64,000 nt of DNA from Thermoanaerobaculia bacterium (GTDB taxonomy: Bacteria; Acidobacteriota; Thermoanaerobaculia; Gp7-AA8), in assembly GCA_038244815.1 (NCBI GenBank), contig JBBRTB010000001.1, forward strand, positions 40,099 through 104,098, in the 5' to 3' direction. A model generated the notes under the pieces. The model did no database searches. It saw only the letters and a list, made by a program, of their open reading frames with translations, and was not told where the DNA came from. Both the position numbers and the translations under genes were made by a program. Shown here piece after piece: positions 45,027 through 61,760 of this stretch (position 1 is the first letter of the stretch; every line of letters begins with the position of its first letter).

Positions 45027-46592
45027 TCACTTCGCGTACTCCACGGTTCTCATCTCCCGGATCACGGTCACTTTGATCTGTCCCGGATACTGCAGCTCGG
45101 ACTCGATCTTGCGGGCCACGTCCTTGGAGAGCCAGATGGATTGTTCGTCGCTGATCTTCTCGGCGTTCACGATGATGCGCAACTCGCGCCCGGCCTGGAT
45201 GGCGAAGCTCTTCGAGACACCGTCCATGCTGTTGGCGATCGACTCCAGCCGCTCCAGGCGATGCACGTAATTCTCGAGAATCTCACGGCGTGCGCCCGGC
45301 CGGGCCGCCGACAGCGCGTCCGCGGCGTTGACCAGCACCGCCTCGACCGTCGTCGGATCGTAATCGCCGTGATGGCATTCCATGGCGTGGATGATCTCGC
45401 GCTTCTCGCCGTACTTGTCGAGCACCTGACGTCCCAGCTCGAGATGCGTGCCTTCCATCTCCCGGTCGATGGCCTTGCCGATGTCGTGCAGCAACCCGCC
45501 GCGCTTGGCGATCGTGTCGTTGACCCCGAGCTCGACCGCCATCAGCGCCGCCAGCTGCGCAACCTCGAGTGAGTGCACGAGCACGTTCTGCCCGTACGAG
45601 GTCCGGTACCGCAATCGTCCCAGCAGCTTGAGCACTTCGGGATTGATATCGGTGATGCCCAGTGAGAACGCCGCGGCCTCCCCTTCCTCGAAGAGCTTCT
45701 GGTCGAGCTCCTGCCGTACTTTCTCGACGAGCTCCTCGATGCGGGCCGGGTGAATGCGTCCGTCCTGCATCAGGCGCTCCAGCGAAATTCGCGCGATCTC
45801 GCGGCGGATCGGATCGAATCCCGACAGAATCACCGCTTCGGGCGTGTCGTCGACGATGAGATCGACTCCCGTGGCCAGCTCGAGCGCGCGGATGTTGCGC
45901 CCTTCACGGCCGATGATGCGGCCCTTCATGTCTTCCGACGGCAGGTCGACGACGGAGACGGTGTTCTCCGCGACGTAGTCCGAGGCCATGCGCTGGATGG
46001 CCATGCCCAGGATCTTGCGGGCCTTCTGCGTGCCCAGCTCGGTGGCCTCGGTCTCGATGCGCTTCACGATGTTGGCGGCGTCGAGCTTGGCTTCGTTCTC
46101 GATGCCGCGGATCAGTTCCTGGCGGGCCTGCTCGGCGGTGAGGCCGGCCACCTGCTCCAGTTTCCGGCGCTGCTCCTCGAACATCTGATCGAGCTGGCCC
46201 TCACGCCGTTCCACATCCTTCTCGCGGCTGGCGATGCCCTGATCGCGCTTCTCGACCTCGTCGATGCGGGCATCGATCTGCTGGGTCTTCCGGTCGATGT
46301 TCTCTTCTTTGGATTGGAGCCGCTGCTCCGACTTCTTCATCTCGTCGCGGCGTTGCTGAGCCTGCTTGTCGAACTCCGACCGCATCTGCAGCAGTTTTTC
46401 TTTCGCTTCGAGACTGGCTTCCTTGACGCGCGCCTCGGCCGACTTGCGGGCGTCTTCGACGATGCGCTCGGCCTCGCGGCGCGCTTCGACGAGCTGCGCC
46501 TCGACACGCTTGCGGTTGACCATCGCCCAGAGCAGGGCGAGCACGATGGCGCCTGCGACGCCAATCGCAATTCCTGTGATGATGGGTACCAA
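45027..46592 (-). CDS. rny: ribonuclease Y
   Basis: N-terminal TM, coiled-coil, KH domain, HD domain (HDIGK). Confidence 0.95.
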
Positions 46593-46629
46593 ACTCCACC
46601 TCCCTCGAGGGAGGCTCGCGCAGTAGAGG

Positions 46630-46850
46630 AAAAAAACTCGGAGATCCCCGCCTGAGCCGTGTGGAGATTCTCACTCGAACCTGTAAAAGAACAGGTGGGC
46701 GCCCTACTGGGACCGTTTTGGCTACCTTCTATACCCGGTGAAGGGCGAAGGCGTGCTCGCGATCCGCAGACCCGGACACCCGAAGCAAGAATTACGGTTC
46801 AAGCGTTAGATCGTTCATCACGCACTCTGCAGGGATTCTCCGAAAATTCT
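46630..46850 (-). ncRNA. ssrS: candidate 6S RNA (SsrS), co-transcribed downstream of zapA
   Basis: ~220-nt non-coding gap between zapA and rny; 5' CGGAGAAUCCC pairs with 3' GGGGAUCUCCG to close the molecule; ends in U7 run; zapA-ssrS synteny is widespread. Confidence 0.35.
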
Positions 46851-58152: not shown

Positions 58153-58740
58153 CTAGACCGGAAGGATCCGGTCGATCCTGGCGGCCAGGACGAAATCGCT
58201 GCGCGTGAGTCCGTCGATCTTGTGCGTCCAGATCTCGATACCCACCTTTCCCCAGGCCAGATGAATGTCAGGATGATGCCCTGCCCGTTCCGCCAACGCG
58301 CCGACAGCGTTCGTGAATGAGAGCGCCTGCGCGAAATCAGGAAAGCGGAACTCCTTCTCCAGGTGGTGCCCGTCCACTACGCGCCAGCTCGATCCAAGCT
58401 CGCGCGCCACGGCGGCGAGCTCGGCTCCCGCGAGCGGGGGTACGCCACCTTTGCACGGAATGCACTCCTCGGCCGCGAGCGTCGACGCGTTCGTCGCGGT
58501 GCGATCGCGGACCAGCCGCGCGAACTCGTCCGCGGTGATGTGGTGCCGGAATATCTCCGCGTTGTCGATGCAGACGACGGGCACGTCACTCGTGTAGCGG
58601 CGGCGCAGTTCCGGATCGTTGTCGATGTCGATCTCCTCGATGCGCACGTCGAGGCCTGAGGAACGCATGACCGCTTTTGCCTCGTCGCAAAGACGACAAT
58701 CGCGGCGGGTGTACATTGTCACGTCGATCGCCGGCGCCAT
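58153..58740 (-). CDS. glutaredoxin-like (CxxC) domain fused to pterin-4a-carbinolamine dehydratase (PCD/DCoH)
   Basis: N-terminal YTRRDCRLCDEAK thioredoxin-fold; C-terminal E...HHPD...W...H....G....D PCD signature. Confidence 0.7.
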   Translation of the reverse strand: MAPAIDVTMYTRRDCRLCDEAKAVMRSSGLDVRIEEIDIDNDPELRRRYTSDVPVVCIDNAEIFRHHITADEFARLVRDRTATNASTLAAEECIPCKGGVPPLAGAELAAVARELGSSWRVVDGHHLEKEFRFPDFAQALSFTNAVGALAERAGHHPDIHLAWGKVGIEIWTHKIDGLTRSDFVLAARIDRILPV

Positions 58741-59608: not shown

Positions 59609-59809
59609 ATGATGTCTTCGATTTTCATCACACTGATTGTCATCGCTGCCGCGGTCGCGCTCGGTGTGGCACTGGCGTATCTGCCGATGCGGCTGCTCCT
59701 TTCCCACCTCGCCAGAAACGTGCGCGAGTTCATCCAGCGCCAGCGCGACCGCCGCACGAGTTCCCGCGACACGCCGGACCGGCGCAATGAAGCGCCGCAG
59801 CAGCCCTGA
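59609..59809 (+). CDS. small TM protein (66 aa), hypothetical
   Basis: Single hydrophobic helix then basic tail; weak. Confidence 0.3.
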   Translation: MMSSIFITLIVIAAAVALGVALAYLPMRLLLSHLARNVREFIQRQRDRRTSSRDTPDRRNEAPQQP

Positions 59810-59824
59810 GGCGAACCGTTACAA

Positions 59825-59917
59825 GTCATTCCGAGCGCCGGAGAGCGCGAGGAATCTGGGCGGGGGAGCACACCGCCTCCGCCCGAATTTCTCGCCGTCT
59901 TCGCGGCTCGGAATGAC
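59825..59917. repeat. ~95-bp imperfect palindromic intergenic element (copy B), convergent spacer; overlaps tlpA stop
   Basis: GTCATTCCGAGCGCCGGAGAGCGCGAGGAATCTGGGCGG...TTCGCGGCTCGGAATGAC. Confidence 0.5.
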
Positions 59918-60418
59918 TCAGCGGGCCAGGGCGGATTCGAGCGCCGTGGTCATGGCCGCATCCCTCATGTCCACGATTCCGAAGTGTTTCCAGACGATGT
60001 TCCCGGACCGGTCGACGATGACCGAGGTCGGAATCACCGACGTCTTGAAGATCGTGGCCAGGTTGCCGTCGGGATCGACCACGATCGGGTAGGCGATCTT
60101 CTCATCGGCAACGAACGGCTTGACGTCGGCGGCACCCCCTTCGTCCACGCTGACGCCGATGACCTTGAATCCGCGGCTGGCATACTTCGCGTGGAGTTTC
60201 TGCAGTTCCGGGATCTCGAAGCGGCATGGACCGCACCACGTCGCCCAGACGTTGAGCAGAACGACGTTGCCCTTCTCGCCGGCGATATCGAACGGCCGCC
60301 CATCGAGCCACTGCGCCTTGTACGCCGGCATGGGCGGACCGGACGGCTTGACCACGGTTTCCTGTTGGTGGCAGGCGGCGATGAGCAGCAGCGCCGCGAA
60401 CGAAAGACATTTCTTCAT
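59918..60418 (-). CDS. TlpA-family thiol:disulfide oxidoreductase lipoprotein
   Basis: Lipobox LLIAAC; WATWCGPC redoxin motif. Confidence 0.85.
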   Translation of the reverse strand: MKKCLSFAALLLIAACHQQETVVKPSGPPMPAYKAQWLDGRPFDIAGEKGNVVLLNVWATWCGPCRFEIPELQKLHAKYASRGFKVIGVSVDEGGAADVKPFVADEKIAYPIVVDPDGNLATIFKTSVIPTSVIVDRSGNIVWKHFGIVDMRDAAMTTALESALAR

Positions 60419-60958
60419 CTACAACCCCTCACCCGGCCCTGTCGGCTCGATGTGCAGCGCGTTCGTGATGCGATTGAAATAGTTGAAGAGCCCGGCCATC
60501 GCCGAAATCTCGAGGATCTCTCCCTCTTCGTAGTGCTTGCGCAGCCTTGCGAACAACTCGTCGCCAACCCGATTGGCGTCGAAGGTGAGCTGCCGTGCGA
60601 ACTCCAGCGCCACTTTCTCCCTTTCCGTGAACGGCCCGCTCTCGAAGTCGACGAGCTGATCGAGCTGCTGATCGGTGGCTCCATGCCGCGCAGCCTGCGC
60701 GGTGTGGGAGCGGTTTCAATACTCACACGAGTTGAGCCGCGACACCAGCGACGCCACCAGCTCCTTCGTCTTGACCGGCACCGTACCGGTGTTCGTGATG
60801 GCCTGAAGGTGCGCCGCCATCGTTGTCAGGATCTCCGGCCGGTGGGCGTAGATGCGGAACATGTTCGGCACGTTCCCGCGCTGCTCCCCCACCCGATTGA
60901 AGAGATCGAGGACTTCACCGCCAACCTGATCTTTCGAGAGTCTCGTCAGTCGAGCCAT
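60419..60958 (-). CDS. AhpD/carboxymuconolactone-decarboxylase-family protein with in-frame UGA at the active-site CxxC (candidate selenoprotein CEYU)
   Basis: ORFs 60716-61237 and 60419-60613 share a frame; joined sequence ...SRLNSCEY-U-NRSHTAQAARHG...EREKVALEFARQLT fits CMD-family core; hairpin 13 nt after UGA. Confidence 0.55.
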
Positions 60959-60961
60959 GCC

Positions 60962-61001
60962 CCATTGTAAAAACAAAAACGCCCCGCAAATTGCGGGGCG
61001 T
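60962..61001 (-). terminator. Rho-independent terminator downstream of rplY
   Basis: ACGCCCCGC-AAUUU-GCGGGGCGU stem-loop followed by UUUUUGUUUUU on minus strand. Confidence 0.55.
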
Positions 61002-61031
61002 TCGTCTGCAGCGTCGCACGGCAGGAAAAAT

Positions 61032-61694
61032 CTACTCTTCCGCCTTCTCTTCGACTTTGCCCTTCTTGATGAGTTCGGGCTCGGCCGGCACGGCGCCCGC
61101 TTCCACCGGCGCCACTTCCTCGACGACTTCCGCGCGCGCATGCGTGACGCCCATGACGACGCGCTCCGGATCCTCGAGAATCTTGATGCCCGTTGGCACT
61201 TTGAGATCCGACACGCGAATGTAGTCGTGCATGCCAACCTCTTCCACGTTCACGTCGATCGCGTCCGGAATCGCTCCCGGCAGACACTCTACGTGAAGCT
61301 CGCGGATCTGCCAGTCCAGGACGCCGCCTTCCTTCACACCACGAGACGTCCCACTGAGATGCACAGGGACGTTGACGCGGACAACCTCGTCCATCATCAC
61401 GCGGACGAAGTCGATGTGGATCATCTTCCTGGAGATCGGATCGATCTGGATGTCCTTGATCATGGCGTGACGCTGCTGATCGGTGCCCGTCATCTTGAGC
61501 AGGAAGATCGAACGCACCCCGTGCTCGCTCTTCTGAACCAGCTCCGCCACCGACTTGCGGTCGACGGTGATCGCCACCGGCTCACGATGGCCGCCGTAGA
61601 CGACGGCAGGCACACGGCCTTCGCGGCGCAGCTTCTTCGCGATTTCTTTCCCCACCGACTCCCGGCGCACGACTTCCAAACTCACCTCGGCCAT
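61032..61694 (-). CDS. rplY: 50S ribosomal protein L25 / general stress protein Ctc
   Basis: L25/Ctc N-terminal beta-barrel (RVPAVVYG...EPVAI) plus acidic C-terminal extension. Confidence 0.85.
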   Translation of the reverse strand: MAEVSLEVVRRESVGKEIAKKLRREGRVPAVVYGGHREPVAITVDRKSVAELVQKSEHGVRSIFLLKMTGTDQQRHAMIKDIQIDPISRKMIHIDFVRVMMDEVVRVNVPVHLSGTSRGVKEGGVLDWQIRELHVECLPGAIPDAIDVNVEEVGMHDYIRVSDLKVPTGIKILEDPERVVMGVTHARAEVVEEVAPVEAGAVPAEPELIKKGKVEEKAEE

Positions 61695-61760
61695 AAAGCT
61701 CCCCTCAACGGATTTCGACAAAAGTTGGGAAAGTCGGGGCGGCCCGGCCTTATTCCCGGC

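Follow-up and report, generated by a model that had tools for sequence, protein, structure and literature searches.

The locus described here raises the question of whether an in-frame TGA in an AhpD-like gene ends that gene or is decoded as selenocysteine (Sec). The gene lies on the minus strand of a 64,000-nt stretch of contig JBBRTB010000001.1 (Thermoanaerobaculia bacterium, assembly GCA_038244815.1), and "the window" refers to this whole stretch throughout. In the list of open reading frames (ORFs), the minus-strand ORF 60716..61237 ends in ...LVSRLNSCEY followed by TGA, and ORF 60419..60613 shares its frame. An initial annotation of the window had joined the two to read S-C-E-Y-U-N-R-S-H-T within a gene of 179 codons that ends in TAG and abuts the ATG of a redoxin gene, and had interpreted the product as a Sec-containing AhpD-like protein of the CMD family. 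Translation reproduced both the shared frame and the reconstructed gene: positions 60958..60419 read MARLT...VSRLNSCEY*NRSHTAQAARHGATD...GPGEGL*, in which the TGA is the single break, preceded by 80 codons and separated from the TAG by another 98. With a probability of roughly 0.9, we consider this a genuine Sec-decoding gene, which would encode an AhpD-like CxxU protein (U denoting Sec) and carry a bacterial Sec insertion sequence (SECIS). The Sec-containing reading is upheld by a conserved TGA, a covarying hairpin, a coding-type tail after the TGA, and the agreement of the hairpin with the bacterial SECIS (bSECIS) consensus.

A TGA at the second cysteine position of an AhpD-like gene

Protein searches were run with U81 written as C. 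The translation scored 97.2 bits with TIGR01926 (the NCBIfam 'peroxidase-related enzyme' model), whose cut-off is 81.8; the match spans residues 4-172 of the 179 and thus the TGA. The read-through protein also aligned to Pfam CMD (PF02627; 54.6 bits, 1.1e-14) and to TIGR00778 (46.1 bits), in line with the family first proposed for it. In phmmer, residues 13-174 matched four PDB entries (2pfx, 3c1l, 2oyo, and 6k40), with CEYC of the window protein opposite CFYC or CYYC, and the window protein is predicted to have the all-helical fold of the AhpD type. Three related NCBIfam models were scored as well, and membership in any of them was rejected, the window protein falling far under the cut-offs of the YciW-related NF053654 (88.8 vs. 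310 bits), AhpD_rel_CFYUT NF041238 (36.8 vs. 175 bits), and GSU3128 NF041047 (16.9 vs. 110 bits).

Among 5.8 billion proteins we found 1817 homologues, many of them full-length and 50-77% identical to the window protein; full-length homologues with Cys at the Sec position (Cys-forms) share 60-70% identity with it. Of 22 aligned homologues, 20 have the second CxxC cysteine at residue 81; S84, H85, and T86 do not vary in the alignment, nor does a Glu (E66) upstream. The second CxxC position is better conserved than the first, where some Cys-forms have Thr. The other two aligned homologues, P0001 and P0005, have Trp at residue 81. For P0001, the nearest homologue (77% identity, found in three metagenome samples), the DNA of three Joint Genome Institute (JGI) contigs has TGA at codon 81, and the JGI call (L001:297-854, L002, and L003) renders the Sec-TGA as Trp, overruns the true TGA stop, and acquires a false C-terminal extension. 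P0005 (65% identity) apparently reflects the same genetic code 4/25 miscall; the DNA was confirmed for P0001 only.

Orthologues with TGA at the Sec position (Sec-forms) were sought by scanning GTDB species-representative genomes for the DNA pattern N-x-C-x-Y-TGA-x-x-S-H-T, which is blind to the hairpin except for the first two bases of the Thr codon. At least 120 loci matched. Loci were retained as orthologues if their read-through protein exceeded 100 bits in comparison with the window protein, and 84 such loci among the matches listed, together with the three JGI metagenome contigs, make up a set of 87. The TGA occupies the same codon in all of these at least 87 read-through orthologues, so that the proposed assignment of the UGA to the second Cys position of C-x-x-C-x-x-x-H-T agrees both with the Cys of the aligned homologues and with the TGA of the orthologues. 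Among the matches listed, the closest orthologues (283-301 bits) are almost all labelled Thermoanaerobaculia, while other carriers include members of Terriglobia/Acidobacteriaceae, Polarisedimenticolia, Gemmatimonadota, Ktedonobacterales/Chloroflexia, and Eremiobacterota, and Alkaliphilus pronyensis.

The sequence beyond the TGA behaves as coding sequence. In all 13 of the closest orthologues the TGA is at codon 81 and the downstream frame is exactly 98 codons long, and neither the decay nor the frameshift in relatives that would have told against the gene was seen. In comparisons with each of these 13, differences after the TGA fall mainly at third codon positions (e.g., 20/12/43 for the three positions), and the 80 codons before it are likewise third-position biased (e.g., 9/10/38). 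Such a bias in an intact 98-codon tail is unlike a pseudogene or an untranslated tail. The motif pattern matches once in the window against zero expected; other in-frame TGA candidates in the window were judged to be antisense or off-frame artefacts of high-GC genes. A Logan assembly contig (L124, SRR19962014) is 100% identical to the window over 1691 bp, TGA included, and was possibly assembled from the same reads.

The same scan also returned further AhpD-type TGA families (L007, L008, L023, L027, L037, L040, L047, L083, L087, L090, L094, L095, and others, as well as L036, L045, L049, L115, and L120). A gammaproteobacterial group with N-E-C-F-Y-U-T-T-S-H-T, similar to NF041238, has a hairpin GCUGCUC-CGGGC-GAGCGGC about 20 nt past the TGA, and a mainly Dormibacterota group with N-R-C-R/H-Y-U-L-S-S-H-T-W-F-L-Q-L-Q-G has the hairpin CCUGCAGUUGCAGG.

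The hairpin downstream of the TGA

A hairpin, CCGCGCA-GGC-UGCGCGG (60702-60686), begins 13 nt after the TGA. It had first been described at this position with a 6-bp stem and a 5-nt loop; the position and the resemblance to a SECIS stand, and the geometry changes to a 7-bp stem with a 3-nt GGC loop, because the A-U closing pair covaries and is therefore real. The minimum free energy (MFE) of the 48-nt segment is -20.7 kcal/mol (z = -2.95). A lower helix predicted from the window alone (60711-60707 with 60682-60678) was paired in 62% across the family and was dropped from the model.

A perfect 7-bp hairpin occurs at +16..+32 from the T of the TGA in 86 of 87 Sec-forms. Across 87 distinct sequences, 99.3% of the cells of this helix are paired, six of the seven pairs show compensatory changes on both sides, and conservation of G24, G25, and C26 is 90% or more. 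Covariation scores 0.394, whereas shuffles give 0.169 ± 0.010, with 0 of 500 attaining the observed value, and controls with slid partners do not exceed 0.18. The stem variants include CCGCGCA/UGCGCGG, CCGCUCU/AGAGCGG, CCGCCUU/AAGGCGG, CCGUCUU/AAGACGG, CUGCUUU/AAAGCAG, CUGUCUU/AAGACAG, ACGCAGCU/AGCUGCGU, and CUGCCGC/GCGGCGG, and the encoded peptide shifts together with the stem (T-A-Q-A-A-R, T-A-L-A-E-R, T-V-L-A-R-R, etc.). The sole TGA-form orthologue of the 87 that lacks the standard hairpin comes from a Planctomycetota metagenome-assembled genome (MAG) and forms three of the seven pairs (L104:2812-2859); it may use a stem-loop shifted further downstream, or it may be decaying.

The hairpin goes with the TGA and not with the protein family at large. 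All seven pairs form in none of 119 Cys-motif CMD-family loci (mode, two to three of seven), which serve as a distant control only, the metagenome scan having given distant CMD subfamilies (at most 65 bits) and no orthologues. Close Cys-form orthologues were therefore fetched one by one, and four of them form 4, 2, 2, and 1 of the seven pairs respectively; three of the close Cys-forms fetched share the synteny with an upstream L25 gene. The comparison with Cys-form orthologues that the initial annotation had pointed to thus separates the two forms, with one exception. This is L248 (L248:3241-3288, ENA ERZ27245399 contig k141_1474160, protein P0016), a Cys-form with TGC at the Sec position and a perfect 7-bp hairpin, apparently a 'fossil' SECIS left by a recent Sec-to-Cys change.

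The bSECIS model (that of bSECISearch), as summarized in the Fig. 2 legend of a 2026 review (PMC13188914), asks for 4-16 bp in the upper stem, 3-9 nt in the apical loop with at least one G in the first two loop positions (pattern N1-G-[G|U]-N-N2), a UGA-to-loop spacing of 16-37 nt, and an MFE of -7.5 kcal/mol or lower. The window element fits each of these features, with its 7-bp stem, 3-nt loop, A-GGC-U apex, spacing of 20 nt (the 7-nt stem arm and the 13 nt before it), and the MFE given above, and resembles the consensus of that source also in lying within the coding sequence past the UGA and in its loop-initial GG. The prototype, the SECIS of E. coli fdhF (~40 nt), is longer and more complex than the window element, in which a bulged U is not evident.

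A covariance model (R1) built from 73 Sec-forms outside the clade of the window matched 60671-60718 on the minus strand (41 bits, E 2.8e-11) as its sole significant match in the 64-kb window, a score that derives in part from coding conservation and is supporting evidence more than independent proof. Among the Cys-forms, R1 gave 6.8 bits (E 2.8) for L245, no match for L246 and L247, and 51 bits for L248.

Decoding of the TGA and alternative explanations

On the preferred interpretation, the gene would encode one cytoplasmic thiol/selenol oxidoreductase of COG2128/TIGR01926, 179 residues long, in which UGA codon 81 is read as selenocysteine. In bacteria, a SECIS recruits SelB with Sec-tRNA(Sec) to a UGA. 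By this established route, a ribosome arriving at the UGA would meet SelB·GTP·Sec-tRNA(Sec) recruited by the hairpin 13 nt downstream, Sec would be inserted, and translation would run through the remaining 98 codons to the TAG. By analogy with AhpD, U81 would then act as the nucleophile that attacks the substrate (a peroxide, a sulfenic acid, or a disulfide) and would form a selenenylsulfide with Cys78, which would be cleared by a reductant. Selenium incorporation, the presence of Sec machinery in the source genome, and this chemistry are what we infer.

Several observations weigh against this interpretation. ARAGORN found no tRNA-Sec in the window (tRNA-Leu and tRNA-Arg only) and none in the 120 listed genome loci, including the flanks of the closest relatives, and tblastn with E. 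coli SelA, SelB, and SelD found no selA, selB, or selD in the window. The invariant pair C17-G33 of the hairpin is partly set by the retrieval pattern. Because the hairpin is itself part of the coding region and the set contains many related sequences, its conservation is partly inherited and not independent. Finally, no SECIS family of Rfam was matched, either by the whole window at the gathering threshold or by 60600-60780 at a permissive E-value, a null result that is expected because the bacterial SECIS models of Rfam are lineage-specific. A covariance-model check of the hairpin, as the initial annotation had envisaged, is thus positive for the family's own model R1 and negative for Rfam. 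Rfam matches to microRNAs and small RNAs near the site were rejected as chance matches on the wrong strand.

NCBIfam annotation of the ten largest ORFs of the window likewise returned housekeeping genes and no Sec machinery. When all loci were searched by tblastn with the three E. coli proteins, the single match was a selB gene in a Terriglobia MAG (DATJYK010000276.1; L006:1-1698, minus strand), which scores 328 bits with TIGR00475 (cut-off 242), is 4.6 kb away from a Sec-form AhpD-like gene, and has its C-terminus cut at the locus edge. With this SelB as the query, the best 120 matches were all Terriglobia-like and none was from Thermoanaerobaculia; SelB is abundant in Terriglobia by this search. 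Acidobacteria have been recorded as selenoprotein users (PMC1794560), and no paper in the searchable literature mentions Thermoanaerobaculia together with selenocysteine. At the level of sequence, our data indicate that the Thermoanaerobaculia-like source lineage uses selenocysteine.

The alternative that survives best, though very unlikely in our view, is that the UGA is read independently of a SECIS, either by a near-cognate or suppressor tRNA (inserting Trp, Cys, or Gly) while the hairpin merely slows the ribosome, or as an ordinary sense codon. The JGI pipeline did call an orthologue with UGA as Trp, and the Sec machinery of the source genome is presumptive. Reassignment of UGA is nevertheless contradicted by codon usage, since TGA serves as the main ordinary stop, ending 15 of the 23 long ORFs called with confidence in the window and also most orthologues of this gene. 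A UGA in place of a redox-active Cys is a classic Sec/Cys pair, the hairpin matches the consensus bound by SelB down to the conserved GG of its apical loop, and a selB gene stands near one orthologue, all of which favor Sec insertion over unspecific read-through.

Slightly less probable still is a pseudogene or split gene, in which the TGA would be a nonsense mutation that leaves an 80-aa N-terminal fragment and perhaps a 64-aa, GTG-initiated C-terminal fragment. Standard gene callers do split the gene in this way (86- and 64-aa genes on L124), and the lack of Sec machinery within the window would suit such an explanation. Against a nonsense mutation, the TGA stands at the same codon across the read-through orthologues of several phyla and coincides exactly with the catalytic Cys position; moreover, third-position bias in an unbroken frame marks the 35 codons that precede the earliest available restart after the TGA, as it does the whole tail, and the hairpin covaries. 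The least probable of the three is an assembly or sequencing error in an ordinary Cys-form gene, for although TGA is one base away from TGC or TGT and Cys-forms are common among close relatives, the identical Logan contig (maybe from the same reads) and all 13 closest orthologues have the TGA, and the window has an intact SECIS hairpin, which is lacking in four of the five Cys-form orthologues that were compared.

Known relatives and gene neighborhood

Sec-decoding as preferred here would place the window gene in a family that is already known. The first report of AhpD-like (COG2128) CxxU proteins, in 2005, described 27 sequences with SECIS-like hairpins in the metagenome of the Sargasso Sea (PMC1088965); the AhpD-like family, listed as 'AhpD-like 1', is the fourth most abundant selenoprotein family in the Global Ocean Sampling data (PMC2398784), an AhpD-like selenoprotein occurs in Alkaliphilus (PMC1794560), and a recent review lists an 'AhpD-like protein, TIGR01926, CxxU' (PMC13188914). 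The window gene and this family share the NCBIfam model, the CxxU position of Sec, abundant Cys homologues, a SECIS stem-loop right downstream with a G in a small apical loop, and a thiol-oxidoreductase-like character. We see no essential difference between them, and the predicted product is a member of this listed COG2128/TIGR01926 selenoprotein family; what sets the window member apart is its Thermoanaerobaculia-like acidobacterial lineage and a clade-specific gene order (L25, Sec gene, TlpA-like lipoprotein gene). Members of NF053654, NF041238, and NF041047 also have a CMD/AhpD core with CxxU and were matched by the same motif scan, whereas their hairpins differ in register and sequence.

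Mycobacterium tuberculosis AhpD is an alkylhydroperoxidase that re-reduces AhpC. The window protein resembles it in the signature of the CMD/AhpD helical fold, the CxxCxxxH motif with a reactive second position, and the invariant upstream Glu (E66 here). It differs in that its sequence is distant, the best PDB matches being 'uncharacterized peroxidase-related proteins' (2pfx, 3c1l, and 2oyo), in having Sec for Cys, and in showing no sign of coupling to lipoamide or AhpC: no ahpC lies beside the selenoprotein gene, whose neighbors are the L25 gene and the TlpA-like lipoprotein gene.

Family, motif, and mechanism have been described since 2005, and the finding, though correct, will not surprise a specialist. 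It leaves the knowledge of Sec biology unchanged, and its value is mainly for annotation. Gene callers split the gene in two or read its UGA as Trp (code 4/25); with the gene recognized, a single undivided redox enzyme results. A SECIS descriptor specific to the family (fixed register, 7 bp, GGC loop) separates Sec- from Cys-forms in at least six phyla and could serve the re-annotation of many soil MAGs.

The coordinates of the gene and of the elements around it are given in Table 1. The span first annotated for the gene reached 61001, and the ORF itself 61237; both run into the terminator of the L25 gene, and the true start is the ATG listed.

Table 1. Features of the AhpD-like selenoprotein locus in the window.
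Feature	Position	Strand	Remarks
AhpD-like / peroxidase-related selenoprotein gene (TIGR01926, Pfam CMD), predicted	60419..60958	minus	179 sense codons if TGA decoded; from translation
Start codon ATG	60958-60956	minus	
Stop codon TAG	60421-60419	minus	
In-frame TGA, proposed Sec codon U81 (codon 81)	60716..60718	minus	motif C78-E-Y-U81-N-R-S-H85-T
Cys78 codon TGT, presumed resolving Cys of CxxU	60725..60727	minus	from sequence, translation, and alignment
His85 codon CAC of CxxUxxxH signature	60704..60706	minus	invariant in homologue alignment
Bacterial SECIS hairpin, putative	60686..60702	minus	5' arm 60702-60696 CCGCGCA; loop 60695-60693 GGC; 3' arm 60692-60686 UGCGCGG
Redoxin gene, 166 aa	59918..60418	minus	abuts selenoprotein gene (TAG, then ATG at 60418)
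Ribosomal protein L25/Ctc gene	61032-61721	minus	upstream of selenoprotein gene
Intrinsic-terminator-like hairpin and T-run after L25/Ctc gene	60977-61003	minus	directly upstream of selenoprotein gene; from terminator scan; conserved in relatives

A -10-like box, TACAAT, ends 5 nt upstream of the ATG (window 60959-60969, minus strand), and no Shine-Dalgarno sequence accompanies it. TAGAAT or TACAAT is found in a like position in five relatives (L001, L020, L038, L106, and L246), which suggests a leaderless mRNA, or one with a very short leader, for these and for the window gene. Six others (L015, L076, L085, L092, L121, and L245) have GGAGG right behind the L25 terminator instead. A sigma-70 promoter scan of 59800-61100 gave no match.

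The redoxin had been described as a TlpA thioredoxin and a plausible redox partner of the selenoprotein. Its product does have a thioredoxin fold with a WCGPC motif and matches Pfam AhpC-TSA and Redoxin (~1e-23), but it stays under the cut-offs of the equivalog models for TlpA (NF047696, 72.8 vs. 230 bits) and ResA (NF002854, 88.1 vs. 170 bits). The predicted protein is thus a TlpA/ResA-like thiol:disulfide oxidoreductase only, and neither a TlpA nor a ResA equivalog. Its N-terminus, MKKCLSFAALLLIAAC, is a lipoprotein-type signal (…LLLIAAC), and a lipobox-like N-terminus is present in relatives too; the selenoprotein lacks a signal peptide. Redoxin and selenoprotein would therefore be located on opposite sides of the membrane, which makes a direct redox pair doubtful.

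The adjacency of the two genes is also restricted to the clade. Of 13 close Thermoanaerobaculia-like loci, 12 have it, and no more remote Sec-form does; the junction is TAG|ATG in the window, some relatives have overlaps of the form GTGA or ATGA, and in others an extra gene of ~1 kb comes between the two. At L246:1558-2808 and L247:1519-2748, the AhpD-like and the redoxin genes are separated by a gene of ~410 aa that weakly matches BNR_2 (sialidase-like repeat), and gaps of ~0.7-1 kb separate the two genes in L092, L121, L017, and L085; with such inserted genes and gaps, tight abutment is not universal even within the clade. In the window, the selenoprotein gene would be co-transcribed and translationally abutted with the gene of the exported TlpA-like lipoprotein, and co-regulation accounts for this link more probably than direct electron transfer does. 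We regard as improbable the bolder proposal that Thermoanaerobaculia are an undocumented Sec-using class in which the coupling of Sec-AhpD with a TlpA-like lipoprotein behind L25 forms a functional cross-envelope redox module and not mere co-regulation.

Two further features of the window may be recorded. A 6S RNA (RF00013, 76 bits) at 46641-46838 on the minus strand adjoins the RNase Y gene (45030-46670). A 195-aa ORF at 58153-58740, also on the minus strand, is an apparent fusion, judged by eye only, of a glutaredoxin-like N-terminus (CRLC) with a C-terminal portion similar to pterin-4a-carbinolamine dehydratase (…HHPDI…).

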